Source: a virus
Lineage: Duplodnaviria > Caudoviricetes
DNA length: 64,000 nt
Direction: 5' to 3' (one strand)
IMG/VR virus record: IMGVR_UViG_3300030118_003411
Coordinates: 1,037 to 65,036 of that record
Part shown: one piece after another, positions 1 through 53,280 of the stretch
How the letters are laid out: each line of letters begins with the position of its first letter
How positions within the stretch are numbered: the stretch's first letter is position 1
Notes under the pieces: model-generated
What the model saw: only the letters and a program-made list of their open reading frames with translations
What the model was told of the DNA's origin: nothing
The model's database searches: none
Translations under genes and position numbers: made by a program

Positions 1-224
1 GCGGGAGCCTCGGGAGCCGGAGCGGGAGCCTCCGGAGCGGGAGCGGGAGCGGCGACCTTAGCCATGAGCTTCTCAAGGCGGGTGACCTTGTAGGCCTTGC
101 CCTTGATCTTAGCATTCTGGAGCCGACGAGCCAGCTCACCATGGGCCTTGACGTTACCGCCCTGAGCAGCGGTCACAAGGTCGGCACCAGAGAAAGAACG
201 GTAATCAATCTTAGCGTTAGTCAT
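1..224 (-). CDS. Early protein with Ala-Pro-Glu (APAPEAP) repeats, truncated at window edge
   Basis: Read manually: ATG at 224 after GGAGA RBS; MTNAKIDYRSFSGADLVTAAQGGNVKAHGELARRLQNAKIKGKAYKVTRLEKLMAKVAAPAPAPEAPAPAPEAP; GC-rich codons. Confidence 0.75.
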   Translation of the reverse strand, partial: MTNAKIDYRSFSGADLVTAAQGGNVKAHGELARRLQNAKIKGKAYKVTRLEKLMAKVAAPAPAPEAPAPAPEAP

Positions 225-283
225 ATTTGATCTCCAAATGACTGTTTCGATTATAGTACGTTTCAGAGTTGAAGCGCACTGTA

Positions 284-304
284 GGATATCGCAAGGCGAA
301 AAAA
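284..304 (-). promoter_or_regulatory. Early-region motif copy 1 (TTTTTTCGC-N4-CGATATCC)
   Basis: Same 17 fixed bases as the copies at 773-793 and 1017-1037; 60 nt upstream of ATG 224. Confidence 0.65.
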
Positions 305-770
305 CCCGGCGATACCCTACAGTACGCTCCAGTGATTCGGTATCGTACACTGGAGCGGGAATCGTCACTGTTACAGGGAACGTTCGAATCTGGAGATCGG
401 TCATATGAGCGGCTATCGTATGCCTTGCTCGACGTAGCTCCTCCTCTAAAACGCACTTCTGCCTACAGTAAAGATTCGGTAATCGGACAGTATATCGCTG
501 GGGCGACGGATCGCCCTTCCTGATGTACACCCCGCGCCGTTACCGGGCAGTGGCCCGTCATCGGTGACGTTCGGTTTCGATAGTCACTCGCTCCAGCCGA
601 TAGCCATGAGATAGGCATAACTAGAGCATCCATATAGCGTGGAGTGTCCTCAGTAGGGCCGCTTCTCGCCCACTACCCTTCTCGCGCCGCTATGGCTCGG
701 GCAGGCCCGTAACAGGCCAGTATACTAGGTTTTTCGGTCAATCCGTCAGGTCCGGTTTCCCGAGCCGTCA
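305..770 (-). ncRNA. Candidate large structured non-coding RNA
   Basis: No convincing ORF; many helices (694-701/759-766, 634-639/688-693, 411-418/598-605, 501-506/511-516 with UCCG loop, 325-334/348-357); begins just after motif copy 2. Confidence 0.5.
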
Positions 771-772
771 GG

Positions 773-793
773 GGATATCGCAGGGCGAAAAAA
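773..793 (-). promoter_or_regulatory. Early-region motif copy 2
   Basis: ggatatcgcagggcgaaaaaa on the + strand. Confidence 0.65.
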
Positions 794-798
794 GCAGG

Positions 799-981
799 TC
801 AGCAGGTCCGTGCGCCGCGCTGGAGCGCACCTTGTAGTTCCGTGATGCGGACCCACGTTTCGATTCCGTTCCACTCTACCTTGACCTTGCGGTCACGGGC
901 GACCTTGTGAAGCTTGCGATTCTCGCGGTCTAGACTTGACTTGGATGCGCTCAGGGTCGCGCCTTTACTTATGATTGCCAT
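799..981 (-). CDS. Early hypothetical protein (60 aa, basic)
   Basis: ORF with GGAGA RBS, preceded by motif copy 3. Confidence 0.7.
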   Translation of the reverse strand: MAIISKGATLSASKSSLDRENRKLHKVARDRKVKVEWNGIETWVRITELQGALQRGARTC

Positions 982-1016
982 TTGTTGTCTCCGTTTCGGT
1001 GTTTCGTTTCGACACT

Positions 1017-1037
1017 GGATATCGGGGAGCGAAAAAA
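1017..1037 (-). promoter_or_regulatory. Early-region motif copy 3
   Basis: ggatatcggggagcgaaaaaa on the + strand; 36 nt upstream of ATG 981. Confidence 0.65.
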
Positions 1038-1039
1038 AT

Positions 1040-1560
1040 GCCCTTCCCTGCGATTGAGACTCATTCGCAATTGAGGAGATTCTGGCTAGGGTAGAGCCTT
1101 GGGGGGTGACGGGGGGTTACGGAGGAACGGAGTGACGACGGGGCTATCTGTGTATTTGCGACCCCTAGTCGATTTTAACTTCTTGGTATACTCTTAACGA
1201 TTGAATACTGTTTATCATCTAATTTTTGTAATCTAGATGATATATCTCTAATTCTTCGATCATGTGCCTCAAGCATTTTTTCATGTAAACTAATTTTAGA
1301 ATATAGTCTAAGCATAAAACCCATGATTGCTAAAACAACAGGTCCAGCGATACTTATTAAAATAGTAATTAGATGTTCCATTTGATTCTCCCCATAGCAA
1401 ATTGTGATAAAACTCCGAAACCCCCCGCAATCCTTAGTCCATACCAACGATATCAACAGCAATAATCTATAGTTAATATACTATATTAACTATACTATAC
1501 AGATATCTATAGATACACCTTAGGTATCTCCCTCTTTTATACCCAATTATTTATTAGTGT
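1040..1560. other. Probable genome terminus / terminal-repeat junction region
   Basis: Lies between the last late gene and the first early units; abrupt GC-to-AT switch at ~1170; G-runs at 1101-1143; AT palindrome ATAGTTAATATA-C-TATATTAACTAT at 1469-1493. Confidence 0.45.
1175..1381 (-). CDS. Small membrane protein (N-terminal TM plus coiled coil)
   Basis: Start MEHLITIL after GGGGAGA RBS; one hydrophobic helix then a charged coiled coil. Confidence 0.65.
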   Translation of the reverse strand: MEHLITILISIAGPVVLAIMGFMLRLYSKISLHEKMLEAHDRRIRDISSRLQKLDDKQYSIVKSIPRS

Positions 1561-1562
1561 TA

Positions 1563-4500
1563 TCACTTCTTTTGCTTTTTCTGAAGTACATCTGCAAGCC
1601 TCTCAGAAGCCCTAGAAGGCCCGCTGCCGAGTTCTGTGGATTTAGGAGTCCCCTTGGGCCTCTGAGGTCTCTGAGGCCTCTCGAAGGATTCTCCTGACTC
1701 TCTTTGCATTTCTGCTACAGATTGTCTTATCCTATCTATCTGGGCGGGTTTTTCTGTTTTATTATATAAATCTATGTTTTCTAGCCTTTGTTCAGACATA
1801 CGTCTTTGTTCTAGAAGTCCTATACCATCTGTAGGAGCAGAGAAGTCATAGTTTTGTTTTCTATACCTTCCCCTCTTTCTTTGGTAGGGTTGAGCGTCTC
1901 TTTGGATAGAATCTAGGAATTCTTTAAGAGAAGATCCTTCGTCTATCGCCTCAAGCTCTTCAAAGATTCTTACTGGAATACCAAGGGGCGATTTATTAAC
2001 AGGACCATCTAAAAGTGCCAGTTTAGCATATTCAGCGGATATTTCTGCAAACTCTTTTTCAGAACGACCCGTAATAAGCTCTGCGGTTGTTTTAGAAGCT
2101 CTTGCTACTTTGTCTACATACTTTGGAAGTGCGCTTAAACCGGGCGCACCAAAGGGGTTAAAAGTATCTGTGGGGTCTACACCAAGAGCGGTTTGGATAG
2201 AATTGATTACTAATCCAAGGAATCCATTGAAACGACCAAGAAGGGGAACACCAGCAGCAGCTTTGCTAATATACCTGATTGGTTCCTTTTCAACTTCCTT
2301 CATAATATCTTCCGCATCTCTCCCTGCTAACCACTCTCGGAATGTACGGTTAACAAGATCAGCTACAGCGTATATTGTCAAGGTTCCGACTAGATACTTA
2401 AGGGTGGTTCTTCCACCAAAGTTTGCAATTGTTCCGTACTGGTATGACTGAACCCAGCTAAACAACTTGTTTAACAAACGACCAACAGTAGTCCTACCTA
2501 CAGTTCCTGTTTGAATAGATAGGCCCATAGGTTCAGAAACATCTCTAAGAGTAACCAGTTGCTCAGACATGTAAATAAATCTATCTACTGCATCTTCAAG
2601 AACATCAGGATCTACGTCTGTTTTAGATTTGTTTGTCCTAGCTTGTACATACAGATCTCTAAGTTTAGCAAAATCAATTCTTCCATTTTTAGCCTCAATG
2701 GCTTTCAGAGCAGAATTAAGAGAATCAATCATTTCTCTATTAAGAAGACCATACTGCATAAAAGGAACAACGTCTTGATAATTAAGTCCTTCTTTTCTAG
2801 CCAAGTCCTTAAGGAACTTAATTAGTTCTTTTTGTGCTTTTCTATCTGTAGAAGCCTTTTGTTCTAGATTTTTAATCTTATTAGCATTTTCTGGCTCTTC
2901 CATCTTGTCTAGTAGTTTAATTAATCTACCGCTCTCAAGATGTTTTTGAATCATTCTTGTGTATTTGGTAATTGCCATCATTCGGTTGGCATTAGTTACT
3001 TGATGTAGTGATCCTACTTGGTTTGCAAAATAAGCAAATCTGCCAGCCAGTTCTTGAGGTATTCTAGAATTTGAATCTAGAACAGATTTAGGCAATCCTG
3101 CTCCTTCGGGACCAAACCAGTTTTGGGCAGAAGAAAGCGAAGTTTCTACTGTTTGATCCATTTCCGACAAGAATCTGACAGTCATGTTTCTGTTTAGAAT
3201 ATCAAAAGCAAATATTGTATCTGCTACTTCCATTCTATCAGCAGCCCTATCATACCTTAAATCACCGAAAACATTTCTTAAAAGAGTTATGGTATTGCTT
3301 ATAATCTTTGCTGGATTAGCGGAAAGTATTCCAGAGTTAGCTGTAATTGCTAATGTTTCTGTTCCCGCAGCAATTCCGTACCCCCAAGCAGTTGATCCTT
3401 GAACAAGGTTACTAGCTACGGTATACAGTTGAGTATTTGTGGGATTATACTTATCATCAATTCTAGAAAGTTTTCCAGAATACATGCTATACATTTCTTC
3501 TATTTTATCCATTCCAGCATTAAGAGACGAAGTAAGCATTTCTTCTAGTTCAGGAGAATGTCTTGCTTTTGAAATCTCTTCCAATCCCAACTGCCTAGAT
3601 TGTCGTAAAAACTCATACATTCTAATGCCCTTGGTTCCAAGCATTCGATCTAGCTCCTGTTGAGCAAGAAGTTCAAACAAACGTCCATGTAAGAAATCTA
3701 TAGTACTTAGAGCAGAGTTAGTTTGTAATATCTCTTTTAGTTCAGGAAACTCCATAACTTCTTCGGGAGTAATGTTTTGAATACGGACTCCAACACTTCT
3801 TCCCTCTGGATCACCGAGTCCTAAAATAGGCTTATAGTTTTTTGCAGAAATAACACTATTACTGTATATTCCTTGCCCAAGTTTCCAACTTAATAATTCT
3901 GACATCTCTGCCATGATAATATCTTGATTTTTTGTTGACTTAAGAAAATCAATCATATTAGGAGTATAATTAGAAGCATCTCCATCAACGGCCTTCATGT
4001 ATTTAGCTCTATCAGAAACAGATAGCTCTTCTAGCTTTTTAGGCATTTTAACAATAACGTAATCATCGCCATCTTTAATCAAGAACCAATCTCTGCCAAT
4101 TCTGCCATGAAGTCTTTCATTTGCCTTTAGACTATCTAATGGATTTGTTCTGGTTCTAATTTTTTCATTCATAGCAATTGTTTCTGCATCAAAGTTAGTA
4201 TCGATAACTCTTTCAAGAGAAGATCTTAGGTTTGATACAGGATTGCCGGTTCTATCTGTTCCCTGTCCAAATAAAGACGAAGGAGCATCGCCTTCTTTAA
4301 TATCAACAGGAAGCCACCCTAAAGCGTAAGCAATACTCTTATGGATAGTTTCTCTATTTTTAATTGTGTTCCTTCTTGCTTTTGTCATCATTTCAATAGC
4401 ATCTGAATGACTTGCTACCTTGTTAGGATCTAAAGTAATTGGCACATAAGTCTCTGGATCAAGGGGAGCTTTCTTAGATCCAGAAATAAAGTCTTTCCAT

Positions 4501-7500
4501 CCTGTTTCTTCTTGTAGCTCAAATACCTTTTTAAACATAAGAGTAAGTGTTTTGTTATATTTTACAGACGCTTCAAATATTTCTTCAACAGCATCATTTA
4601 TCTTATTCGCAGGAACTCCTGATTCTGTGAGAAGTTCTTTGATTTCGTTTTTATCAATAGCTTTCTTAGAGGCTCTTGAATTAAAGATATAAGACATAAT
4701 TGAATTATATGAATTATATCTGTTAGATATTCTTAGAAGCCTAGCGTTTTCAGTCATTAAAATGCCAATAAATCTATCAGCTTTACTCTTAGAAGCCATC
4801 CAAGTTCTAATTGGTCTCTTACCCGCTCCCACAATATGTCCTGTGTGGAACCGAGTATCGTCTACAAAACGACTTAGCTTTTGCATAAGAGGAATATAAG
4901 AATACATAGTATCCTTTAATCCTGTACCATATTGTGCGAAAAGCATGACATTTCTCATGGTGTTTCTCCACCAATTTTGAGAATCAATATCAGAGGCACC
5001 AAATACAGTTCCTATCCATCCTTGCTCTCTAACAACTCTGTGATTGTTTCCGTCTTTTTTGTTAAACCATCTTCTAACAGCACCTTTGGCTTTTCCGTCA
5101 AACTTACCTGCTTGCTCTTCGGCCCTCTTCATTTTCTCTGCTTCTGATTCAAACTTACGTCCGCCAGTTAATGCATCGTATTCTTCTGGTTGAAGAGGTT
5201 CTTGGAATCTAGGCTTCTTATTGTCTTTATTAAACTTCTTGTTTGTTTTCTTTGCTGCTAGTTCGTAGATTTGCTTATCGGTTTTAACACTTAATAGATC
5301 TGCTATAGTTTTTGTTTCCATAGCTTCTATCTTTTGTCGTTGTTTGTCGTTCTTAAGTCTAATAGAATCAACTTGTTTCCAGAAATAAACAACAGCTTCA
5401 TCTCCATGATTTGCTGAGTTCTTTTTCATAATTTCTGAAGCCTGTAGTAGATATCCTCCTACAAGCTTAGAAACAGCTTGGAAACTATGCATAGATCTTG
5501 GGAACAAGGAAATTAACTTACTAACGAGTTGGATATCAGCACCTAAGCTGTTTAAAAATTCATTATCAGATAAAATAAAAGCATCTACTTGATCTTGAAC
5601 AGACATATCGTCGGTATCGTGAGCATGGGCTTCTCCCTCTTCTACTTCGGGACCATCTGCTGCATCTCGGCCATTATCAACAACCTGCTCATCTTCATCA
5701 TCAATAGGCTTGGTATTTCCTTCTTCATCAGGAACAGCAGCATCTTCATCTACCTTAACTCCGTCAGTTTCTACTTTCCCTGTAGCGGAGTGAGTTTCAT
5801 TTACGGTATTTCTTCTTGATACCTCAGCAGGCAAAACAATTGTAGCGTCTTCGCCATCGATATGAATTACAGCATCAATGCCATGCTGATCATTTAAATA
5901 ACTCATAATAAAATCATACTCATCTTGCAAGGTCTTAACAAAGCCAAGCTTTCGTAGTGTATCAAGTCCATTTTTAATAGTAACCTTGAGGATGAAAGTA
6001 TCGATTCCCTCTACTAGTAATAAATCATCAGGAATTTGATCAATAAGGTCTTCTGCTTTTGTTATAGGCTTTGTTGCAACAACAGGATTCTTTAGAATAA
6101 CCTCTGATGTTTTAATTACAGTTTCTTTGTTTTGGTCTGCTTCTTTTCGAACAGCTTCTGCTTTAGGCTTACTAGTAGTAGCGACTGTAGCTTTCTTGGT
6201 TGGTTTCTTGCTTGTAGAAGCCTCATGAACTGTAAAGGTTGTAGGCTCTCCCGTTCTAATTGTTTTAATAGATCTAGTATTAATAACGGTTGTTTTAGAA
6301 TCATTAGAGCTTACAGTAGTTTCTTTTGCTTTTTCTTCTCGTTGTTTATTAATCTTAGAAACACCAGTAGAAGCCTTGCTCTCTTCTAAGTCTGCTTTTG
6401 TTTGGCTTTCGTTTATGTCAATTTTCTCAACAGATGCTTGAAGACCGTCTTGTCTCATTTGAGCTTCTGCTTTTTCTAAATCGTATGGCTTAGATTCTGG
6501 AACAAGCTCCGCAACTGTTTCTCCATCAATATCAATTGTACCCTCTTCTACAAACTTTTGTTTACCTGATTCTCTAATTGAATCAATAGTACCTAATTTA
6601 TCTCCTTGAGTTTTCTTTAATGTTTTATACTGAGGGAATTTCTTTTTAAATGCTCTATTCAAAGCAGTTGGGGTAGCTGCGATTCTGTCTTTTAATTCAC
6701 TAACAATTTTTGTTTGCTCAACTAGAGATGCAGCATCTTCTTCAGATAGAACCTGTCCCTTTGCCTTTAACTTAGATCTTTTCTTTTGAATACGTTCTTT
6801 TTCTTTTTTAGCTCTGTTGTATATTTTTTCATTAATTACAAAATCCCACTCTTGTAGTAGAAGGAATTTTTCTTCGTCTGTTAACCTACCAGCTTTATGC
6901 ATAGAATCAATTCTGTTCTTAGCAGCGGTAGAAACCTCAAGACCTCTCATTGTTCCAGACTCAACGTCTGTCATTCTCATTGACATTGAACCCATTGCTT
7001 CTGCCGCCTCTCTAACACCAGCAGATTCAAATTCTAAAGATCTGTATTTAGTTTCGCCGCCCTCTGTAAATTGTCCTTTTTCTTCTCTAAATCTAGATCT
7101 AGCTAAAGATGCTCCTTTTCCTGCTAAGAAAGAAAGAAGCTGCTTTGGACCTTCTGTTTTATCTGATTTAGCGGTAATCTTTCCATCCATTACCTGAGCA
7201 ATAATCTCACCGGCAGCGTCTTCTGCATCTTGTAGATTTTTTACTACGCCATTAATTGATTTAATTAATGCATCATATACACTTGGATTTCCCTTGCTAT
7301 CAGTATGACTTACAAACGAAACAACATCAACATTTCCTGAATCATCAACAACAAGGCTTTCTGGCAGCTTCTTTGATTTAGACTGAGTACTGACTGTTCG
7401 TCTCATTGTAGATTTATCTGCTGCTTCTCCAATTTGATTTGTTACCGCTTCGGCTGTATTAGTAATGTTATTAGATACAGCTTCTACAGCGGCTTCTGGG

Positions 7501-10500
7501 GTAATGTTATCAAGGTTCTCAATAGTATTTAATGTTTTTTCTGTAACCAGTTCTTTTACTGCGCTTAGAATAGTCTTAGTTTTTGTTTGAAGTTTATTAT
7601 CAATAACAACTAAACTTCCATTTAATACCATTTCTTCTAACTTAGAAGCGGGAAGAGAAGCAATGTCTTCGTGTCCTTCTGCAAGTCTAAGAGAAGACTT
7701 AGGATCAAAGAGAACTTTTTCTTTGTTCCTGAGTTTATTGAATTTTTCAATTCTTGCAGCAGCTTCAGGATCCATTGCAGGAGGAACAATATTATCTCTG
7801 TTTTCTGGAGCAACAGCTTTTCTAATTACTTTTTCAGTTCTACTATAACTACCATCATTTGAAATAGCGGATTTAACTTGTGTAGACTCAAATACAATAT
7901 ATTCTCGTCCCTCTTCAATAATTAATCCATCATATCCTTGTTCTTTTAGAATATCTTGAACAGTCTTAGCAACTTTTTTTGCTTTTTCTATTCTCGATTC
8001 AGGAATATTTCCTTCTAATAACTCAAGAGTTAAAAGGTATTCTGATTCAGTAAAACTCATTTCTGGTTTATTTGGATCAAAAAATTGGCTTATTTCTTCA
8101 TAAAAAGCCTCATTTGATTTTAATATAAATGGTCGTTGCATACTAAGATATACAGGAATTACTCTTCCATACTTTCTTGCTCCACTACCAGCGTAAGTAT
8201 TGGCCTCGTTTGCTTGACTAGTAAAATAAATTCCCTTTCCATAAAATCCAACATCAGTTGTATTTATGTTTGTATCGAAGTAACTAAAGTCTTCTTTAGC
8301 GGTAGTTCCGTGAAATAGTAACATTGGCGTTCCATCTAAATGAGATGCTTTGGATTTTTGGAACCACTCTTTAAAGTTTTCGTTTTGTCTTAAATCGACA
8401 TCTCTTCCTTTTTCAATTCTTGCCAATCTATCTCTTAAATGTAGATATTGTCTAGCGGTCTCAATAGCACTTGCAGGAACATCTGACATAATTCCTTGGT
8501 TAATAGCTCCTTCTCCGCCTTTTTTATAGTTTAATAGTGTGGGATACTTCATTCTCTCCTGTAAGAAAAGAGCATTGGATAGTGTACCGTCTATAAAATC
8601 ACCATAGTCGAGCATATCGGTTAGGGGGTGTCCTCTAAGTTCTGATCCTAAATCAATAGAATTTTCAAAAGCTATTTGTAGACCTTTTGCTACACCTCGT
8701 CTTTCAAAGTTAACTTCTCGAAGAACATCCATATTAGCTTCTAATGAGTTTCCTTTTTGTGTTCTCGATGCTACAATAATCTCAGAATCTATTCTAAGAG
8801 GATCTATTACAGATCTAATCTGTGCAGCCTGTGAAATTAAATCTGAAAGTTTAGTTGGCTTTCCATTTTTATCTACATATAAAACATACTCAAACATTTC
8901 AAAGGGATCAAGATACCTTACGGTTAGATAAGTAGCAAGATCTTTTCCAGATTGAGTTCCTTGATCTAATTCATTAATATAAGATGTAATAGTATTTTGA
9001 AAAGTTTCTACATCTGTTTTGTTATCTAAAAATAGTTTCTTTTGAGAACCCGGCCCACTACTTAGAAAATCATTTATATAGAATATAAACTTAGTAAAAA
9101 CATCCCCTGTGGTATTTTCTAGTTGACGAAGTTTCTCCCTTTGTTTTATAGTAGGAGTTCCATCAGAATCTTCTCTAAAAATCTTTACTCTTTCTTCTGC
9201 TCCTCTGCTGTGAGATTCAATATCATCTCTAATAGCTTTTGATAAAGGATAGTCTGTTAATGCTCTTTTAAGTTTATTCTTAATAACAGTACCGCTTAGA
9301 GATTGATAAGTATCTAATTCTAGAGAAGCTAAATAATCTTCTTCGATGCTCTCTCTAAGCTTTTCCATAATCTCCATTTGTCTTTCTTGTCTTGCGTTAA
9401 GATCTCTATAACCACCATCAAGTTCTTCTTGGGTTGATCTAATAACGTCAAGTACATTTTGGACAAGTGTTCTTGCTTTTTCTACAACAAAGGAGTAGAT
9501 ACTATCAATTAATTCTAGTATTCTATATTGAGAACCCGCATCTAATCCCATTGTTATGTTATGGGCTTCATCAAAGACTCCAGCCCGATCATATCTATCA
9601 GTAAGTACTATCCTAGTGAGTTCAGCAAAAAACTCATATGGATCGCTCATAGCGTGTGCAACTTGTCGCTCATCGGCTCCTAATGCTCTAAGTATGTTTT
9701 TAAATACTTCGACTTCATCAGGAGTCATATTATTATATTCATCAAGAATTTTTTTCTGTAAATGAATAGGAAGATCTTCATGAAAAACGTGCCCAGCAAT
9801 TTCATGCAAGAATACACCAACTTGTTCAACACTTGATGCTTTTTTAATCTCATTAAGGTTTAAAATTAATTCTACAGATCCGTCTTCGCCTCTGGATTCT
9901 ACTTCCGCAAAAGTACCTAACAAATCTTCTTGTAGTTCTTGAGAGCTTCTAGAAAGACCAGATGTTTCGTCTGCTGGTCTTGTTACAATAAGATCTCCAG
10001 TTTCTTCTCGATACCTAATATTTCTAAGATATCTTGGATTTTGATTTGCTAATATTGATCGTAAAACTAAAGCAGCATCTGGTTTCAATACACCCATACC
10101 AACCAAAGTATTAAAAAGCTCTAATACTTTTGCATGTTCAGGACTAAGGCCAGCAAAGAATTTATCGTCTTGCATAGCTCTACTAGCTTTCTTTCTTTCT
10201 GCCTTAGACATCCTGCTTTTTCTTTTTGAGGCTTTATTATTTTTAACTTTAGCATCTATTCTTGCTTTTTCTTCAGTATTTAAAGGAGCGTATGCTTTTC
10301 GTGCGCCTTGTCTCTTATCTGTTGTTTTAACGGATTCAGTAGAAGGTACTTCTCTTTCTTTCATTCCTAATCTACGTCTAAACATATTTTCTTGTGCTAC
10401 TAGTTTATTAAGAAATGCTCTATCTTCTTCAGATAATTCTTTTCCACTTTTCTTAACTTTGTTTTCAATAGCTTTAATTACACGACCTAAAGATTCTGCA

Positions 10501-12302
10501 AGTTTTTTCATTTTAGCAGCGTCTTTTGTTCTCATGACTTCTCTAAATTGAATACCAGCTTCCATTTCAGCATCCATCATAGCAAAACGTCCGGTTTCAG
10601 GATCTTGTCTTGCTACGGCACTTTCTGTCATGCGGTCTAGTTTAACTTCTTTTTGATCTGGAGAAACTCTTGTTTTTGTTTCAGCATCAACTCTTGGATC
10701 ATCTTCGGTTTTAGTATTCCTAACCCTTTCTCTAGCCTCTGCATTATTAGCTGCTCGGTTAGCATTCATTTCTTCAAAAAGAGGTCTATTAGAAACAAAC
10801 CTAGATCCAACTCCTAGTCCAGCTTCATCAGTGATAGCAAGGGCAGAAGTAATTTGTTGGTTTGATTTATTATTTGATTTTTTCATTGCTTTTGCGATAG
10901 CTGGAATACTTCCCAATGCTCCACCTAAAACAAATCCTAAAGACGTTGCTAGGGCAAATCTAGCGTAGTCAAATTCTTTTTCTCTTTCGGTGGTAGCACC
11001 TAAAATTCTGGCCTCTTCAATCATTGCTTTTTGTGATAAGATATCTGACAATCCGCCTTGAAGTGCGCCCGCTGTTCCTAGTTTAAGGAATGAGTCAGCA
11101 ATTTGTTTGAACCCGGCTTTCTCTACTCTAAAGCCAGCAGCCGCATATCGAGCAAAAGCACTTCCTTTTCCTGCATTGTGAAATAACTTAGCTACTCTTG
11201 TTCCTAATGATTTTCTAAATGTTTCTCTTGCTGAGTTTCTAAGAGCTTGTTTTCCTACTCCCTTTAGTGTTTGTGTTACTAGACCCTTACCTACGCCTTT
11301 AATAAGCCCAGCCAATCCTCCAAGTCCTAAAGTAGCGGCCATATCTGGGTCGTTATAAATCATAGAAGGAAGAGAATAAATCATCATTCCTGTTTGACCT
11401 ACTGCACTATTTTCATAATACGACTCAAGTGTGCTTTCTAAAGACGATCTAGTAACTGCTCTTCCTACTAAATAGTCTGCTGTTCTTTTGTTTTTAGCTT
11501 TTGTTAGCTCTTCAATATTAAAACCATTTCGATTTAAGACACTTAATAACCTTGCATTGTCTCCATAATTATCTTCAAAATATTTAATTGAATCAAAAGA
11601 TCCGTCAATTTTTGATATATAATTAGGATCCGTTTCAGCATAGTTTAAAGAATCTTGAATATCTCTGTAAGGAGATCCTCCGTTAACAAAATTACCAATA
11701 GCTCCGGCGTTATCAAAAAGTTGTTTAAACTTAGAATAAATATCCCCTAAGTATAGAGTATTAAATCTTCCCTCCATATCTTTATCTACGGGTCTTTCTG
11801 TTCCTGTAGAGGGAATATTAGCATAAGGATCTCCAATCTCACCATCTACAAGAATTCCTCGTCTTAAAGCATATCCTGCTGTATCGTTTCCAACCCAACC
11901 AGACCATCCATCTAAAGCTCCTTGAAGCAAGAAATTGCTAGATGCTTCCATAAAACCTAGAATGTCTCCCATCCACTCAAAACCGTATTGTGCTGCTTCG
12001 CCATAACCAAGACCTTTTGCTACATTAGACATTGTTTGTCCATATAAATCAAGACGTTTGGGCTGTCGTTGATAACTAGCTTCATCTTTTAAAGCCTCAG
12101 GACTTACATCTGGCATCATTTCATTGGGAATAAGATTTGTACCAAAAATTGAATCATAAATTCCTGTAGCTCCTAGATAGCTTAAATTAAAGTTTCTTTC
12201 TTTTTCTTTTCTAAAGAAATAATCGATTTCGTGTTCTTTATGCCTATCGAAATCATGATTTAAAAAATATCGTCTAGGAATATCTTGGTTTGTAAAAGGC
12301 AT
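1563..12302 (-). CDS. Giant polyvalent internal virion (ejectosome, gp16-like) protein with zincin peptidase, ADP-ribosyltransferase and sigma-like domains
   Basis: 3579 aa; last of the internal virion genes; HEIAGH...EFFAE zincin motif; NFKEWF..FHGT..GIYFTS..GYDGLII..EYIVFESTQVKSA ART-PolyVal motifs; Gly/Ala hydrophobic helices. Confidence 0.8.
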   Translation of the reverse strand: MPFTNQDIPRRYFLNHDFDRHKEHEIDYFFRKEKERNFNLSYLGATGIYDSIFGTNLIPNEMMPDVSPEALKDEASYQRQPKRLDLYGQTMSNVAKGLGYGEAAQYGFEWMGDILGFMEASSNFLLQGALDGWSGWVGNDTAGYALRRGILVDGEIGDPYANIPSTGTERPVDKDMEGRFNTLYLGDIYSKFKQLFDNAGAIGNFVNGGSPYRDIQDSLNYAETDPNYISKIDGSFDSIKYFEDNYGDNARLLSVLNRNGFNIEELTKAKNKRTADYLVGRAVTRSSLESTLESYYENSAVGQTGMMIYSLPSMIYNDPDMAATLGLGGLAGLIKGVGKGLVTQTLKGVGKQALRNSARETFRKSLGTRVAKLFHNAGKGSAFARYAAAGFRVEKAGFKQIADSFLKLGTAGALQGGLSDILSQKAMIEEARILGATTEREKEFDYARFALATSLGFVLGGALGSIPAIAKAMKKSNNKSNQQITSALAITDEAGLGVGSRFVSNRPLFEEMNANRAANNAEARERVRNTKTEDDPRVDAETKTRVSPDQKEVKLDRMTESAVARQDPETGRFAMMDAEMEAGIQFREVMRTKDAAKMKKLAESLGRVIKAIENKVKKSGKELSEEDRAFLNKLVAQENMFRRRLGMKEREVPSTESVKTTDKRQGARKAYAPLNTEEKARIDAKVKNNKASKRKSRMSKAERKKASRAMQDDKFFAGLSPEHAKVLELFNTLVGMGVLKPDAALVLRSILANQNPRYLRNIRYREETGDLIVTRPADETSGLSRSSQELQEDLLGTFAEVESRGEDGSVELILNLNEIKKASSVEQVGVFLHEIAGHVFHEDLPIHLQKKILDEYNNMTPDEVEVFKNILRALGADERQVAHAMSDPYEFFAELTRIVLTDRYDRAGVFDEAHNITMGLDAGSQYRILELIDSIYSFVVEKARTLVQNVLDVIRSTQEELDGGYRDLNARQERQMEIMEKLRESIEEDYLASLELDTYQSLSGTVIKNKLKRALTDYPLSKAIRDDIESHSRGAEERVKIFREDSDGTPTIKQREKLRQLENTTGDVFTKFIFYINDFLSSGPGSQKKLFLDNKTDVETFQNTITSYINELDQGTQSGKDLATYLTVRYLDPFEMFEYVLYVDKNGKPTKLSDLISQAAQIRSVIDPLRIDSEIIVASRTQKGNSLEANMDVLREVNFERRGVAKGLQIAFENSIDLGSELRGHPLTDMLDYGDFIDGTLSNALFLQERMKYPTLLNYKKGGEGAINQGIMSDVPASAIETARQYLHLRDRLARIEKGRDVDLRQNENFKEWFQKSKASHLDGTPMLLFHGTTAKEDFSYFDTNINTTDVGFYGKGIYFTSQANEANTYAGSGARKYGRVIPVYLSMQRPFILKSNEAFYEEISQFFDPNKPEMSFTESEYLLTLELLEGNIPESRIEKAKKVAKTVQDILKEQGYDGLIIEEGREYIVFESTQVKSAISNDGSYSRTEKVIRKAVAPENRDNIVPPAMDPEAAARIEKFNKLRNKEKVLFDPKSSLRLAEGHEDIASLPASKLEEMVLNGSLVVIDNKLQTKTKTILSAVKELVTEKTLNTIENLDNITPEAAVEAVSNNITNTAEAVTNQIGEAADKSTMRRTVSTQSKSKKLPESLVVDDSGNVDVVSFVSHTDSKGNPSVYDALIKSINGVVKNLQDAEDAAGEIIAQVMDGKITAKSDKTEGPKQLLSFLAGKGASLARSRFREEKGQFTEGGETKYRSLEFESAGVREAAEAMGSMSMRMTDVESGTMRGLEVSTAAKNRIDSMHKAGRLTDEEKFLLLQEWDFVINEKIYNRAKKEKERIQKKRSKLKAKGQVLSEEDAASLVEQTKIVSELKDRIAATPTALNRAFKKKFPQYKTLKKTQGDKLGTIDSIRESGKQKFVEEGTIDIDGETVAELVPESKPYDLEKAEAQMRQDGLQASVEKIDINESQTKADLEESKASTGVSKINKQREEKAKETTVSSNDSKTTVINTRSIKTIRTGEPTTFTVHEASTSKKPTKKATVATTSKPKAEAVRKEADQNKETVIKTSEVILKNPVVATKPITKAEDLIDQIPDDLLLVEGIDTFILKVTIKNGLDTLRKLGFVKTLQDEYDFIMSYLNDQHGIDAVIHIDGEDATIVLPAEVSRRNTVNETHSATGKVETDGVKVDEDAAVPDEEGNTKPIDDEDEQVVDNGRDAADGPEVEEGEAHAHDTDDMSVQDQVDAFILSDNEFLNSLGADIQLVSKLISLFPRSMHSFQAVSKLVGGYLLQASEIMKKNSANHGDEAVVYFWKQVDSIRLKNDKQRQKIEAMETKTIADLLSVKTDKQIYELAAKKTNKKFNKDNKKPRFQEPLQPEEYDALTGGRKFESEAEKMKRAEEQAGKFDGKAKGAVRRWFNKKDGNNHRVVREQGWIGTVFGASDIDSQNWWRNTMRNVMLFAQYGTGLKDTMYSYIPLMQKLSRFVDDTRFHTGHIVGAGKRPIRTWMASKSKADRFIGILMTENARLLRISNRYNSYNSIMSYIFNSRASKKAIDKNEIKELLTESGVPANKINDAVEEIFEASVKYNKTLTLMFKKVFELQEETGWKDFISGSKKAPLDPETYVPITLDPNKVASHSDAIEMMTKARRNTIKNRETIHKSIAYALGWLPVDIKEGDAPSSLFGQGTDRTGNPVSNLRSSLERVIDTNFDAETIAMNEKIRTRTNPLDSLKANERLHGRIGRDWFLIKDGDDYVIVKMPKKLEELSVSDRAKYMKAVDGDASNYTPNMIDFLKSTKNQDIIMAEMSELLSWKLGQGIYSNSVISAKNYKPILGLGDPEGRSVGVRIQNITPEEVMEFPELKEILQTNSALSTIDFLHGRLFELLAQQELDRMLGTKGIRMYEFLRQSRQLGLEEISKARHSPELEEMLTSSLNAGMDKIEEMYSMYSGKLSRIDDKYNPTNTQLYTVASNLVQGSTAWGYGIAAGTETLAITANSGILSANPAKIISNTITLLRNVFGDLRYDRAADRMEVADTIFAFDILNRNMTVRFLSEMDQTVETSLSSAQNWFGPEGAGLPKSVLDSNSRIPQELAGRFAYFANQVGSLHQVTNANRMMAITKYTRMIQKHLESGRLIKLLDKMEEPENANKIKNLEQKASTDRKAQKELIKFLKDLARKEGLNYQDVVPFMQYGLLNREMIDSLNSALKAIEAKNGRIDFAKLRDLYVQARTNKSKTDVDPDVLEDAVDRFIYMSEQLVTLRDVSEPMGLSIQTGTVGRTTVGRLLNKLFSWVQSYQYGTIANFGGRTTLKYLVGTLTIYAVADLVNRTFREWLAGRDAEDIMKEVEKEPIRYISKAAAGVPLLGRFNGFLGLVINSIQTALGVDPTDTFNPFGAPGLSALPKYVDKVARASKTTAELITGRSEKEFAEISAEYAKLALLDGPVNKSPLGIPVRIFEELEAIDEGSSLKEFLDSIQRDAQPYQRKRGRYRKQNYDFSAPTDGIGLLEQRRMSEQRLENIDLYNKTEKPAQIDRIRQSVAEMQRESGESFERPQRPQRPKGTPKSTELGSGPSRASERLADVLQKKQKK

Positions 12303-15300
12303 TAATTATCTCCATCAAATTCTGGTCTTGTTTCTCTGGTGGGTCTCATTAGTCTTTGTTTACGTTGATTTGTACCGGGAATCAGTCGTTCGTTCTTTAG
12401 ATATCTAATCATAAATAAAGCAAGGTCTACTTGGGTTTGTCTATCTAAACGGTTCCATGCGGCTCCGCCAATAAATGCATTTTCTTCTTTCCAATCTTTA
12501 AGAGCAATTTGAGTTTCCATAGATCCATATCTTGATCCTTTTTGACCGGAACTTAATCTATAACTATATTCGGCACTTCTTTTCATTTCTGCTATAGTCA
12601 TTTCGGGAAGATTTTCCATATAGATATTTAAAAGCGTTTCTGCATTTTCTGTAGAACTTATAGTATCTATTCCCGTATTCATAAAAGTAGTTACTTCGTT
12701 TATACCAGAAAGAAGTGCAGGGTTTTCTTCAATAATAGCTCTATTTCTTAATTCATTTTCTTCGCCCTCGTACATAATTCCTCCATATGCTTTTTTAACT
12801 GCATCTTGAAGAAGAATAAATTGATGTTCGTCAGATAATTCAGAAACATTATCTACGATGCTCTGTGCTTGGGCATAATAATAAGGTTTTTCTTTTGATC
12901 TTTGATATTCTAATTTTTGCTCTGGAGTTATATCTTCTGATGATTCTTCGGTTGCAAAACCATAGTACATAGTTGCTGATAAAACACCTTCTAACAAATC
13001 ATTATAATTAGCTTCTCCTTTATTTCTATTATATACCCCACTATATGTAAGTTTAAAAATTTCATCGTTTTTAACAATATTCATAACATCTTTCTTAGGG
13101 AGATTAAATCCATATTTTTTTCTAATCTCTTCAACAGCAAAACCAACACGAGTCATTACAAACTCTCTTGCTTCCTTAAGAGCATTTTTTGAGATAACTC
13201 CATTTTCAGCAATTAATTGATTTTGTTCTTCTACGGAAAGAGATGACGTATCAGTTTCTACTATTTTTCTATCTAAATTAGTAAGAACAATAAAACCATC
13301 TTCGTCAGATTCGCTTAAAATAAAATTAGAATCTTCTAAAGAATCTGGTAATTGTAAAACAGAAGAAATTCTAAGAGGAGCTTCTCCCAAAAGAGTTTTT
13401 ACTATTCTTTCTTGTTTTTTATCATCCTGAGTTCTTTCTTTAGGATAATCCATAGTTATATTTCTATTTGGTAGATCATCAACAAATATTGGATCGGCCA
13501 TTTCTCCAATCTCATCGGAAGCTTGTTGACCCATAAAAAATCCCCATCCGCTTTGACGAAGACCAGTACCTTGTTTTTGATTCTCAATATGAGTAGCTAT
13601 AGTGTCTGGGGTTGTTGTTTGTTTCGTCCCCTCCCTTGCTACTGACGAAAAATCAGCCTCAAAAACTACATCACTTCCATTTACAGACGTAAAATATGGG
13701 TTAATATCTATTACCTTTCCGCCTATTTCAACAGTGCTTGCATTAAAAGCATATCCTCCTCTATCAGGACTAGCTTGAGATCTTGTTTTAATAGCTGTTC
13801 TATCAGCCATTTTGTAGTTTAGTCTTGCTGTTGAGTAGTTTTCTATTAAGTACTTGTAGTTTTCTTTAATATCATCAAGAGTATCAAACGATCTGTCTTC
13901 TATCTCTAATTGATTAAATATTTCTTCTTGAACTTCTGGAGACATGAAGACCATTGTTTGATAAATAGCACCGGGATCTAATCCTCTTCCAACGCCTCTT
14001 TGTACTTCTTTTGCTTTGGTTAAAACTTCTTCAGACCACTCTGGTTCTCGCATTAAAATATTATTATCAATATCTAAGTTAATGTTTGATAAAGCTGGTT
14101 TAATAAATTGATCAATAGCTGTATCTGAACTTGTCATATAATCTTTTGGAGGGTAAAGTGCGGCGTTAATAATTAAGTTTGGATCTCCTGACGTTGCTTC
14201 ATACATAGCGCGATCCCAAGAATTTCCCATAGATACATCAACTAGCCTTCCATTCTCATCTGTAATAGGAACAATGTGTGCATTTTCTATTAATCTTTGT
14301 TTTAAAGGCTCTTTAATTTTATCATCAAGACTACTCTTTTCGATGACGCTTAAAGTAGCCATTAAAGACATGAATTCAATATTTTGATTAGGAATAAATG
14401 TGTTTTCATCTATTGTTACAGGAACTGAAGAAAAGCTTTGCTGTATAGATTGTCCTTTTCCTGTTATAAACATTTCACTAGGAAGACCCTTAGAACCATA
14501 AGTAACAATTTCAGTTTCTCTAAATATTCCATTTAAAATATCTACGACACCCTGCCTGTTTTGGTAGGCACCTTCTTCGCCCATTTTTCTTCGTGCTGTA
14601 ATATCTTCCAAAGTTCTTTGGTGTGCTTCATCGTCAATTTTACGCGCTTGTTGTAAAGCTAAGTTAACATCAACGCCGCCCTCTTCTGATTTGTAATATT
14701 CATACATTGTTAAACCAAGAAGAATTCTTGATTTTTGATCAGCGTTTAGTCCTGCTCCTCCTAAGGATTGGTCATTATTAATTAAAGATCTTACAGTATC
14801 TTCTCCGCCTGCGCTAAGATACGGAAATAAAATATAAGCTGAGTTTAAATCTTCTGGATTATTTGCAAACCTATTAGCGGCTTCAATTACTGGTTCTGGA
14901 GCTTGTTGTACAAAACTTGGATCTCCTAGCCTAGCCAAAAATCCCTGAGTTAATGACGCACCAATTTGTTGTGCTTTTTGGGGATACTGTTCCATTAGTA
15001 GCATGGGATCTTGAGACCAACTAATAACTCCGGTTTCTTCATTCACACTAAACATAGGAATTTCTTGGCCGTCTTTTGTGAATATTGTAGTTTCTGGAGT
15101 AAGACCTGCTTTAGATAGAGCGACTGGATCAATTTGCATTTTGTTCCATTGACTGTCGTTATACTCTTTACTAGAAAACCCTTGAGATGCACTTTGTATT
15201 TCTTTTACTCTTTCTTTAACTGCCCCAAATTCTTTTAACATTTCTGGGGCATTAAGAGAAGAAAAAATACGCTCAAAACCTAAACGAGCTTCTTCTTTTC

Positions 15301-51083: not shown

Positions 51084-52811
51084 TTACTCAACGGGTTCAA
51101 AGTGAATCTGTCCGTCTTCCGAGACGGCGAAATCAATCTCCTTTGTCCTACCAGTAATTCGGTCATAGAACAGGCATGCTGCCACACCAGCTCGACCAGT
51201 AAGTCGATTCTTAAGAACTCGAATAGTAGTAGTATTAGCAACTACAGGGTTCTCGTTCTGACGATCACGCTCAAGAGCAATCACAGTGTTAGGTACACTG
51301 GCAAGTGAGCCGGATCCTCGAAGATCCTGAAGGGTGATGCGATCACCTTCTTCATAAGCCTTCTGGGTTTTCTTAAGCTGAGAGACAACATCGATGCGGA
51401 CCCCAGTACGAGAGACAAGAGCGCGTAGTTCCTTCATAAGGTTGTCGATGATAAGACGCTCGGATGCACCACCATCGATATCCTTCTCATTTGCTCCAGC
51501 CATACCAACAGCAGCGGCGGTGATGTGATCAAGTACAATAACATCTACACCAAGAGATACAGCCATGAACTCCATACGAGCAGCAAGGTTCTGTAGAGCG
51601 TTGTTGCCAAGGTGATCGTAGATATAGAAGTTGGTTCCAGTAAGCCGCTCTCTGGCTTCTGCATACTCCTCATCAGTGAGGTCATCAATGATCTCCATTT
51701 CTACAGGATCCTTGCCCATACGCTGTCGAAGCTCGTTCATAGTACGAGCAGCACGAATAGCACGAACGGGCTTGTTGATAAGCAAGCTGATCATATCATC
51801 AATAGTCTCCTGAGGCGACTCCTCCAGCATGATAGCACCAACGGAGCGGCCCTCTTCAAGATGGTGACACATGATCTCACGGAGGATGGTGGACTTGCCG
51901 GAGCCAGTACCTGAGGTCCACAGGGTGATCTCTCCTGATCGCTGGCCGATAAGGAAGTCAGTGAGCCTATCATAAGGGAAAGGGTACACCTTGCTCTCAA
52001 GCTGATCAGCCGTAGACAATACGTTAGATACATGCAGGATCTCGTCGGGAGAGTATAGCGGGGCTTGCCAAGTAGCATTGACAACAGCCTTGCCCTCGCC
52101 CTTGACAAGGCACTCGTTAGCATCCTTGTAAGGAAGCGATGCAATGCGACACTTGCCGGGAGGCAGGATCTCTGCAACTTCCTTAGCTGCCTCACGACCG
52201 GGATCGTCTTGATCAAACATGATAACAATCTCGTCGTAGCTAGTAACAAACTCAAGGTTATCCTTGATAGCTCTAGCTGCGCCGTTGGCACCAGCAGGAA
52301 CAGACACTACAGGCCAGCTATTGTTTAGAAGCTGGTTGACAGTCATTGCATCTATCTCACCTTCGGTGATAACAAGACGCTTTGCATTACCAGACTTGTT
52401 AGTCCAAACATTCTGACCAAACAAAGGAGCGTTCTTAGCAGAACCCTTCCAGAAGAAAGTCTTATCGGGACCGCGCAGCTTTTGACCAACAATAGCATTG
52501 TCTCGATAATAATTTGCAATGTGAACATCCTTGCCGTTGATACGAGCAACTTGATATCCATAAATCCTTGCGGTCTTCTCGGTAATACCTCGGTCAGATA
52601 GACCAGTGAAGGTGCCGGTATGAGGCTTGAAGTTTACGGTAGAAGAGTGAGTAGTGGTCATTCGAGTAGAGTTTCCTTTGCTATTTTCATAGTGACCGCA
52701 GCTAAAACAATAACCGCTACCATCGTCATATACGGCCATATTGTCTTCTGAGTTATCTCGCCCATTTGCTGCACAAGAGGGGCATTGCTTACGTTCAGTC
52801 ATAGTTCCCAT
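51084..52811 (-). CDS. Primase-helicase (T7 gp4-like)
   Basis: Zn finger CPSC/CFSC, TEGEIDA TOPRIM, SGTGSGKS, LDHIT, LRGSGS, LKNRLTG. Confidence 0.97.
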   Translation of the reverse strand: MGTMTERKQCPSCAANGRDNSEDNMAVYDDGSGYCFSCGHYENSKGNSTRMTTTHSSTVNFKPHTGTFTGLSDRGITEKTARIYGYQVARINGKDVHIANYYRDNAIVGQKLRGPDKTFFWKGSAKNAPLFGQNVWTNKSGNAKRLVITEGEIDAMTVNQLLNNSWPVVSVPAGANGAARAIKDNLEFVTSYDEIVIMFDQDDPGREAAKEVAEILPPGKCRIASLPYKDANECLVKGEGKAVVNATWQAPLYSPDEILHVSNVLSTADQLESKVYPFPYDRLTDFLIGQRSGEITLWTSGTGSGKSTILREIMCHHLEEGRSVGAIMLEESPQETIDDMISLLINKPVRAIRAARTMNELRQRMGKDPVEMEIIDDLTDEEYAEARERLTGTNFYIYDHLGNNALQNLAARMEFMAVSLGVDVIVLDHITAAAVGMAGANEKDIDGGASERLIIDNLMKELRALVSRTGVRIDVVSQLKKTQKAYEEGDRITLQDLRGSGSLASVPNTVIALERDRQNENPVVANTTTIRVLKNRLTGRAGVAACLFYDRITGRTKEIDFAVSEDGQIHFEPVE

Positions 52812-53280
52812 GAGTATTCTCCAATATATTTTTAATCTTCTTTAGTTCTCCACACACCCAAGATCTGGACTTGCCGATCTTTCTTCCAATCACATCTTGA
52901 GTATCTTTGTTTAATCTCATTTCTACAATTAGCTTTTGTCTATCTGAAAGTACTTCCAAAAGCTCCCAAGAAAAATCATTGACAACTTCTTTATCTAAGT
53001 GAATAGGTTCAAGATTTGTTTTAAGATTATATCTTCTTAGCCACTTTCTATTAGCTTGTTTTCTATATCCCTGATCATGCATGTAATCATAGATAACATC
53101 TTTCTTAACTGTAAAATTAAGATATATTTCTACCTTTGTTTTTGTGTCATCAAACTTTTGAAGTCTTTTCCAAGCATGAATCAAAGCGCACGAATAAATT
53201 TCTTCATTCGTCCACCTTGGGCACTTGGAAGCAAGTGAATAAGATATCTTATTAATTAAATCTAGGTTTTCTTCAAGCAT
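52795..53280 (-). CDS. Sigma70/ECF-like RNA polymerase sigma factor
   Basis: Region 2 (EEIYSCALIHAWKRLQKFD..YL) and region 4 HTH (LSDRQKLIV..TQDVIGRKIGKSRSWV). Confidence 0.75.
   Translation of the reverse strand: MLEENLDLINKISYSLASKCPRWTNEEIYSCALIHAWKRLQKFDDTKTKVEIYLNFTVKKDVIYDYMHDQGYRKQANRKWLRRYNLKTNLEPIHLDKEVVNDFSWELLEVLSDRQKLIVEMRLNKDTQDVIGRKIGKSRSWVCGELKKIKNILENTHGNYD

Follow-up and report, generated by a model that had tools for sequence, protein, structure and literature searches.

A probable sigma-derived module within a giant, putatively injected protein of a phage with T7-like genes

At entry into the cell, phages take over transcription by placing strong early promoters before the host holoenzyme, as T7 does, by injecting a polymerase of their own (N4, phiKZ) or by injecting enzymes that modify the host polymerase. 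Here we describe a giant protein of 3579 amino acids (aa) encoded in a stretch of 64,000 nucleotides (hereafter the window) that covers positions 1,037 to 65,036 of the IMG/VR virus record IMGVR_UViG_3300030118_003411. In the middle of this protein, at aa ~1655-1925, lies a region that resembles sigma factors of the extracytoplasmic function (ECF) type. The reading that we favour, to which we give a probability of about 40% as a whole, is that this region is an ECF-type sigma captured in an injected polyvalent giant, and that its sigma2-like part docks on the host core polymerase.

The closest described systems are the following. In T7, gp16-C forms a cytoplasmic hub at the DNA exit and binds DNA, and host RNA polymerase that transcribes the leading genome end pulls the genome in (PMC8954989). 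Polyvalent proteins occur in phages and in conjugative elements; those of phages are argued to be injected multi-domain proteins with ADP-ribosyltransferase (ART) and peptidase domains, for which autoproteolytic release of domains by their own peptidase has been proposed, and T4 Alt is a head-packaged, injected ADP-ribosyltransferase that modifies host RNA polymerase (PMC5512222). The N4 virion RNA polymerase, gp50, is the giant third ejection protein of the Schitoviridae (PMC13434306, PMC11445570).

We consider it likely that the region at aa ~1655-1925 derives from a sigma factor, and with the same assurance it can be read as a diverged ECF-type cassette, with a sigma2-like domain, a variable linker and a split sigma4-like helix-turn-helix (HTH). 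The coordinates of these parts are collected in the table. A first-pass annotation of this DNA had described an ECF-sigma-like module of two domains with an insert, and this description is borne out by the hidden Markov model (HMM) matches of the relative P0005, by the alignment of the window with P0005, by the predicted folds and by the language-model neighbours. The peptides that it quoted are in place (VYDALIKSING at aa 1675, window 7280-7248; RSRFREEK at aa 1735; RLTDEEKFLLL at aa 1806; LGTIDSIRESGKQKF at aa 1903, window 6596-6552), and the basic insert of ~60 aa that it reported is real, with 58 aa (aa 1820-1877), 15 K/R against 10 D/E and a modelled helical hairpin. The span that it gave, 6541-7290, is right within a codon but lies 1-2 bases off register, the in-frame span being 6540-7295. 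Of the DAED and GT motifs that it expected in homologues, E-D-A is invariant in 4/4 sequences and the T is kept in 3/3, but the D-A that precedes becomes Y-G in P0004 and R-A in P0005, and the G is not conserved.

The relatives of the giant protein represent three lineages, P0003 with 61% identity and the fragments P0004 (84%) and P0005 (26-31%), and the order of sigma2, linker and sigma4 is kept in all of them. P0003 has 3583 aa, and 2215 of the 3579 residues of the giant protein are identical in it. The parts of the module differ in their conservation against P0003: 57 of 91 residues are identical in the sigma2-like domain, which equals the mean of the whole protein, 14 of 50 in the linker, 10 of 24 in the first sigma4-like helix, 11 of 58 in the insert and 16 of 48 in the sigma4-like HTH. 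The insert is absent from P0005; its model has helices at model residues 168-206 and 213-233, with predicted local distance difference test scores (pLDDT) of 79-92 in the block 191-230. An exhaustive phmmer search with aa 1540-2040 over 1.84 billion representatives returned 2 matches, P0004 (291 aa) and P0005 (783 aa), and word-index searches returned P0002, P0003 and P0005 only. Two scans of viral contigs found no further relatives, a scan of metagenome contigs brought up nothing beyond the window's own sequence (L002) and the locus of P0003 (L003), and the module had no match by megablast or tblastn in a collection of 50,697 phage records.

Sequence evidence for a kinship with sigma factors comes through P0005. 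Its aa 302-366 correspond to positions 5-67 of 71 in Pfam Sigma70_r2 (E 1.7e-4, a sub-threshold 21.8 bits), and its entire NCBIfam list consists of three sigma-factor models, which are colinear and have E values of 0.0081-0.056. Two of these cover the sigma2 part (aa 311-380 to 38-104 of 180, E 0.014; aa 304-388 to 14-98 of 175, E 0.056) and the third lies at the C-end, where aa 471-490 match 154-173 of 179, the end of the sigma C model (E 0.0081). The window protein aligns with P0005 across the same region: aa 1656-1741 match P0005 289-367, overlapping the Sigma70_r2 match, with a blastp E of 1.5e-6 for the segment alone, and the E value was 1e-19 over a wider region (BLASTP) and 6.5e-9 in the exhaustive library search. 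The sigma4-like part is colinear with P0005 but weakly matched (segment blastp E 0.041). The PHROGs search with the window segment gave three insignificant matches only.

AlphaFold models were obtained for aa 1642-1927 of the window protein (mean pLDDT 67.1) and for the P0005 module (mean pLDDT 63.3), and were compared by VIA with 48,161 representative chains and, in a second look, with the candidates of Foldseek. For the window model, 8 of the 9 rows among the top 50 that include model residues 1-107 are ECF-sigma or transcription-complex entries, the ninth being a designed helical protein. These rows are 5zx2_F and 5wuq_A (Z 6.4), 9m98_F (6.3), 5uxx_C (6.2), 9n9q_C (6.1) and 4nqw_A, 2o7g_B and 7qh5_B (6.0), and the N-domain alignments extend over 77-90 residues with a root-mean-square deviation (rmsd) of 3.1-5.6. 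Among the Foldseek candidates, 17/18 N-domain rows are again such entries (Z 5.5-7.0), the best being 9m9d_F with Z 7.0. Three rows align both domains of the window model, for instance sigmaE 6jbq_F (model 5..283 to chain 5..189) and sigmaL 6tye_F; in the remaining rows, the insert region is paired with generic long helices.

The model of P0005 gave a similar picture. Ranks 1-9 in VIA are all ECF sigma2 domains or the sigma-like domain of PhyR (Z 6.1-6.7), with superpositions of the sigma2 part over 73-91 residues at rmsd 2.6-3.7, and several rows span both domains in order, such as 5zx2_F (model 9..215 to chain 22..196) and 6dxo_A. For the C-domain, the matches are to HTHs, including those of SigR region 4 (5fgm_A, Z 5.2, 64 residues aligned of a 65-residue chain), of the SigL -35 domain and of sigma28. 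A sigma2 fold followed by a sigma4 fold on one chain is thus found in the predicted structures. Foldseek puts ECF sigma chains first for both models, though never at E <=0.001, and for P0005 they take ranks 1-6 and 8 with 190-220 alignment columns. In BFVD, Foldseek found nothing significant, the list being a mixture of tape-measure-like helical proteins and, at E 0.37-0.73, six sigma entries from phages. In these models, the weight of the fold evidence lies in the lack of a rival family for the N-domain and in the right domain order.

Language-model features point in the same direction for P0005 279-497, where all the clusters listed from the 30 nearest named ones are of sigma70/ECF type, with 162-196 aa and scores of 0.94-0.95. 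None of the 30 clusters nearest to the window module has a name, and the nearest named one has Sigma70_r2 in 36% of its members (score 0.93). These neighbours are a lead only.

Judged from its gene context, the giant protein is probably delivered by the virion. Its gene, the largest of the late block, closes that block downstream of the terminase gene, and the protein carries an ART-PolyVal domain; on these grounds, it is probably packaged in the head and expelled with the DNA. Several unrelated effector-type domains with low-complexity linkers between them are present, as in polyvalent proteins: the ART-PolyVal domain, the sigma-like module and a block with an HExxH motif. ART-PolyVal is the sole Pfam family above threshold in the protein, a PARP match below cut-off overlapping it, and the one PHROGs match is a family of unknown function over the same stretch. 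The domain shows the motifs LLFHGT (aa 1328), GIYFTS (aa 1357) and EYIVFES (aa 1467), and lies upstream of the sigma-like module, its end being 170 aa from the module's start. The module is flanked by stretches rich in S/T/K/E, with low hydrophobicity and low complexity, and because of these flanks the protein resembles domains on a string. Further along, the acidic stretch at aa 2181-2260 divides the middle of the protein from its C-terminal 1300 aa; the block just before it, IPDDLL...HGIDAVIHIDGEDATIVLPAE...VKVDEDA, is conserved and common to P0005.

For the zincin domain named in the first-pass annotation, the candidate active site is an HEIAGH motif. This motif lies in the best-conserved block of the giant protein (aa 801-900, 81% identical to P0003), but no peptidase family was found over it by Pfam, either with the whole protein or with nine separately scanned pieces. 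Those nine pieces of the protein gave nothing below E 0.004 in Pfam, and no peptidase, LPD or MPTase family. As to a kinship with gp15/gp16, no family or tblastn match was obtained outside the ART domain.

In the favoured reading, the giant protein would be packaged in the head and would enter the cell together with the DNA, and in the cytoplasm its sigma2-like domain would dock on the beta' clamp helices of the host core RNA polymerase. Such docking would keep the polymerase where the phage DNA comes in, speeding a transcription-driven genome entry, and would bring it within reach of the ADP-ribosyltransferase 170 residues upstream. If a sigma origin and delivery by the virion are granted, we lean slightly towards binding of the module to the core polymerase. 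The co-fold with the clamp helices that had been suggested was carried out with window aa 1651-1749 and E. coli beta' 240-340 as a stand-in for the host, and gave a score of 0.32 (runs of 0.32, 0.32 and 0.34), whereas the best of 3 controls scored 0.01; the runs share at least 75% of their contacts, and the pLDDT of the partner is at least 61. The mark for such co-folds is reached by 58/80 solved complexes and by 2/110 mismatched pairs, counts that are only approximate here because a thin 4-row alignment was used, and scores of at most 0.60 belong to only 7 of those 80 solved complexes and to both mismatched pairs that passed. Because complexes of sigma2 with the clamp helices have already been solved, the pass may show likeness rather than binding. 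As a modelling result, the co-fold lends weak support to a docking of the sigma2-like domain with the clamp helices.

The same co-fold (0.32 against 0.01 for the best control) would fit a blocker equally well. The module might be an inhibitory mimic of a sigma factor, which occupies the host core polymerase or titrates an anti-sigma or other sigma partner, as PhyR does, so that host transcription is shut off or rewired. In VIA, the closest match of the P0005 model is the sigma-like domain of PhyR bound to NepR (3t0y_C, Z 6.7, rmsd 2.6, 73 aligned), and the window lineage keeps the sigma2 core as the DNA-reading half drifts. We regard this explanation as improbable: eight rows of true ECF sigmas lie within Z 0.6 of 3t0y_C, the few copies of the protein per virion would seem insufficient to titrate the polymerase of a cell, and no gene for an anti-sigma-like partner was seen, although no search was aimed at one.

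The pattern of conservation also bears on a reuse of the module in which a sigma-derived piece no longer contacts polymerase and serves as a DNA-binding or structural part of the core stack or ejectosome, like the hub of T7 gp16. An HTH and a lysine-rich hairpin would suit non-specific DNA binding, gp16-C binds DNA (PMC8954989), and the PHROG 'pilot protein for DNA ejection' matches the helical part of the segment, at an E of 0.16 that is weak and not significant. However, the best-kept part between lineages is the sigma2-like core and not the HTH, and the known role of sigma2 is docking on the polymerase and reading of the -10 element; with T4 Alt as a guide (PMC5512222), the adjoining ART domain also suits an action on the polymerase. 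Such a reuse seems to us rather unlikely.

Several observations weigh against the reading of a captured sigma that docks on the host polymerase after injection. By sequence, the window segment matched no sigma family in Pfam at E<=10 in four cuts and nothing in NCBIfam, P0003 and P0004 gave no sigma HMM match at E<=10, the 21.8 bits of P0005 against Sigma70_r2 fall below the Pfam cut-off of 24, and Sigma70_r4 and r4_2 match no member of the family at E<=10. Among PDB sequences, no sigma match was obtained with the window segment (phmmer), the P0005 segment or the family profile A1 (E<=10). The module profile compared with the phage's own 161-aa sigma as a single sequence gave E 0.92, and hhalign against the 11-member family of that sigma gave E 0.055 over 31 columns, with regions 2.2-2.4 in the expected register; at the level of sequence, the embedded module and the phage's own sigma have no detectable kinship. 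The sigma4-like half is the fastest-diverging stretch of the giant protein and is interrupted by the 58-aa insert. The confidence of the models is moderate because both rest on a 4-sequence alignment, Foldseek never reached E <=0.001 against the PDB, and Z is at most 7.0, where VIA values below 8 can reflect a common helical arrangement. As to delivery, the giant protein has no Pfam or PHROG match to gp16, gp15 or known ejection proteins, and its C-terminal 1330 aa have no tblastn match in the 50,697 phage records. The gene order is unlike that of T7, since the genes for the giant proteins follow the terminase gene and do not stand between the nozzle and fibre genes as gp14-gp15-gp16 do. Lastly, the module sits mid-chain in a protein of 3579 aa, and neither a cleavage site nor a protease family was found in it (regular-expression search for a repeated linker motif; Pfam pieces).

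Part of these results would agree with a lack of any sigma homology, in which a three-helix bundle and an HTH are alike by chance and AlphaFold and the language model echo one short motif: no search attains a curated threshold, the warning on helical folds applies to Z values of at most 7.0, and the alignments are shallow, with 4 sequences. Nevertheless, one and the same family, with its parts in matching order along the protein, emerges from independent kinds of test: the HMMs of Pfam and NCBIfam, two programs for structural alignment applied to both models, and the features of the language model. No competing family appeared for the N-domain, so we hold a chance likeness to be very improbable. 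Because curated sequence thresholds are not reached, the module stands outside the ECF family in the strict sense; it also departs from the free-standing size of ~150-250 aa that is typical of ECF factors, as it is embedded at aa ~1655-1925 of 3579.

The first-pass annotation had gone further and proposed that the phage may inject a ready-made sigma. The module would then be a complete promoter-specific sigma, cut from the giant protein, perhaps by the HExxH domain, which steers the host core enzyme to the early promoters of the phage before any phage expression. The order of sigma2, linker and sigma4 in all three lineages is consistent with this, and so is the last helix of P0005, NTIATRLNRAKKKLKE, which lies at the end of the NCBIfam sigma C model (154-173 of 179) and is modelled as the last HTH helix, matching SigR region 4. 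The HEIAGH block is the best conserved (81% identical), and autoproteolytic release of domains has been proposed for polyvalent proteins (PMC5512222). Against it, the sigma4-like part is split by the 58-aa insert and keeps only 16/48 residues identical to P0003 in the window lineage, no protease family or cleavage motif was found (Pfam, regular expression), and a k-mer look at 16 intergenic regions showed no shared, repeated promoter-like motif. The motif at 284/773/1017, of which three copies were found, none elsewhere in the window and 0 expected by chance, is situated past the 3' end of the late block and could be a promoter, a terminator or a packaging signal. Besides, a small sigma and a T7-type polymerase are among the phage's own genes. 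We therefore take a complete sigma to be unlikely. Promoter-specific activity is the less likely variant because the sigma4-like half, split by a hairpin and evolving fast, is less apt to read a fixed -35 element. It is likewise doubtful that the virion brings a ready-made sigma, whether freed or still attached where the ejection channel opens into the cytoplasm, which loads host core polymerase onto the first-entering DNA; if it did, early transcription and transcription-driven entry would be independent of any host sigma.

By its gene content the phage, which is uncultured, is a T7-like podovirus of ~65 kb, in agreement with the first-pass annotation, which had called it T7-like; its RNA polymerase and terminase are both of T7 type, and a nozzle and a portal are present. 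The IMG/VR record has 65,036 bases, is rated 96% complete and linear, and is covered nearly entirely by the window, in which the minus strand carries nearly all genes. The T7-like set identified with Pfam and PHROGs comprises an 818-aa single-subunit RNA polymerase, a family-A DNA polymerase, a primase-helicase, the portal, the major head protein, tail tubular and nozzle domains and a T7-type large terminase. The phage is distant from all isolates, the best match of its polymerase being 27.7% identical among the 50,697 phage records. The 161-aa sigma-like protein matches Pfam Sigma70_r4 (E 3.7e-5, 23.6 bits against a cut-off of 24.1) and Sigma70_r2 (E 0.0024) as well as phrog_351 'sigma factor' (E 8e-8); it is the only match in a six-frame genome scan with PF04542 (open reading frame, ORF, 52795..53280), and it has 13 relatives, mostly of 161 aa, the source of one of which names a sigma-70 family factor. 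The presence of its own single-subunit polymerase together with a sigma for the host polymerase is an unusual pairing in a T7-like phage.

Downstream of the terminase gene lie genes for proteins of 166, 212, 361, 1250 and then 3579 aa. The sizes 212/361/1250/3579 aa climb as in T7 gp14-gp15-gp16, but the genes follow the terminase. The nozzle protein of 1915 aa (28613-34360, minus strand) is followed by a 503-aa protein with a fibre-like N-terminus and an unannotated 1673-aa protein. The end region (window 1-1560 and the preceding 1036 bases of the record) has 48% G+C against ~33-41% for most of the genome; a G+C-rich tandem, GCGGGAGCCTC..., occupies window 1-42, and the record also holds a run of N. 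This end region may represent a separate module, or else a join made during assembly.

Table. Location of the features discussed, in positions of the 64,000-nucleotide window
Feature	Position	Strand	Basis
Giant ORF P0001, 3579 aa; last and largest gene of the late (structural) block	1563..12302	-	ORF translation
Hydrophobic segment like a membrane span, the only one in the giant protein, aa 451-469	10896..10952	-	Kyte-Doolittle, 19-residue window, mean 1.64
HEIAGH (HExxH) motif, candidate zincin active site, aa 833-838	9789..9806	-	sequence motif
ART-PolyVal ADP-ribosyltransferase domain, aa 1323-1485	7848..8336	-	Pfam PF18760, E 2.2e-22, 80.8 bits, cut-off 31.2
Sigma2-like domain, aa 1655-1745; modelled helices aa 1674-1687, 1690-1705, 1719-1741	7068..7340	-	AlphaFold2 (AF2) model, VIA, blastp
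Variable linker, aa 1746-1795, in place of the sigma2-sigma4 linker	6918..7067	-	pLDDT <50 at model residues 100-145
First sigma4-like helix, contains RLTDEEKFLLLQEW, aa 1796-1819	6846..6917	-	aligns with P0005 ILTEKDAWLITTEF
Basic helical-hairpin insert, 58 aa, aa 1820-1877	6672..6845	-	15 K/R vs 10 D/E
Sigma4-like HTH, aa 1878-1925 (TALNRAFKKKF ... GTIDSIRESGKQKFVEEG)	6528..6671	-	colinear BLASTP to P0005 FRAVFPD...NTIATRLNRAKKKLKESG
Strongly acidic stretch, aa 2181-2260	5523-5760	-	composition, 26 D/E vs 3 K/R in 80 residues
212-aa (hydrophobic N-terminus), 361-aa and 1250-aa proteins upstream of the giant gene	12302-17722	-	no family match
Nozzle domain protein, 1915 aa; PF25675 only at aa 1092-1443	28613-34360	-	E 3.2e-58
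Separate 161-aa sigma-like gene, between the primase-helicase gene and the early genes	52795..53280	-	Pfam, PHROGs
T7-type single-subunit RNA polymerase, 818 aa	56952..59408	-	phrog_414, E 2.1e-146
Motif GGATATCG-N4-GCGAAAAAA, three copies, beyond the 3' end of the giant gene	284-309, 773-798, 1017-1042	+	

We found no precedent in print for a sigma-like module in an injected giant phage protein, keyword searches returned no title to that effect, and exact phrases such as 'injected sigma factor' occurred in none of the papers searched. The word sigma and the Greek letter occur 0 times in the main text of PMC5512222, so a sigma-like domain is not mentioned there; the list of 131 domains in its supplements may bear on this point. 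An injected sigma is likewise not mentioned in the available parts of the jumbo-phage overviews PMC7824862 and PMC13282480. The novelty lies in a variation on kinds that are already known, polyvalent proteins and the sigma factors that phages carry. If the favoured reading is true, a polymerase-docking sigma-like module in an ejected giant would be a further route of takeover, the neighbouring ADP-ribosyltransferase would gain a plausible means of finding its target, and a class of transcription factor would be added to the domain repertoire of polyvalent proteins.

Compared with known systems, the module is closest in its fold to ECF (group 4) sigma factors, the entries matched being M. tuberculosis SigH (5zx2_F), B. 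subtilis SigW (5wuq_A), E. coli sigmaE region 2 (2mao), SigK (4nqw_A) and SigR region 4 (5fgm_A). It has in common with them the two domains and their order, a linker of low conservation, a Sigma70_r2 match that P0005 shows below threshold, and predicted folds that superpose on sigma2 and on sigma4. Unlike these factors, which have ~160-200 aa and are free-standing, it is central in a 3579-aa protein and carries a 58-aa insert within the sigma4-like domain, and ahead of its first sigma2 helix it has a segment other than the N-terminal helix usual in these factors. PhyR (3t0y_C), a degenerate ECF sigma that acts as a decoy, offers a parallel of another kind, as its sigma2/sigma4-like fold is joined to another domain and is no longer a free sigma; in bacteria, however, PhyR serves as a response regulator and acts by trapping an anti-sigma, and nothing here suggests control by phosphorylation or an anti-sigma partner.

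As a whole protein, the giant resembles the polyvalent proteins described by Iyer, Burroughs, Anand, de Souza and Aravind in 2017 (PMC5512222) in being giant and multi-domain, in its late-gene context and in its ART-PolyVal domain; it also has an HExxH motif where a processing peptidase is expected, and a role in the earliest phase after injection is predicted for such proteins. It differs from them in that no LPD or MPTase Pfam family was matched. The likeness to N4 gp50 is that of a protein of ~3500 residues thought to exit the capsid with the DNA, with a transcription module in mid-chain for transcription at the ejectosome site. N4 brings a complete single-subunit polymerase, whereas the giant protein has no polymerase domain and would borrow the host core enzyme; here the T7-type polymerase is encoded by a separate gene of 818 aa. 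With T4 Alt, the giant would share a virion-carried ART aimed at host transcription, which is putative here, its ART lying at a distance of 170 aa from the domain that may dock on the polymerase. A sigma-like domain is absent from Alt, and the ART here belongs to the ART-PolyVal family. Lastly, as in the free-standing ECF-like sigmas of phages (phiEco32-type, PMC7881722, and the phage's own 161-aa protein), the giant protein carries a putative sigma70-family module for the host core polymerase, but those factors are made after infection from their own genes, whereas the module in the giant protein would arrive ready-made.

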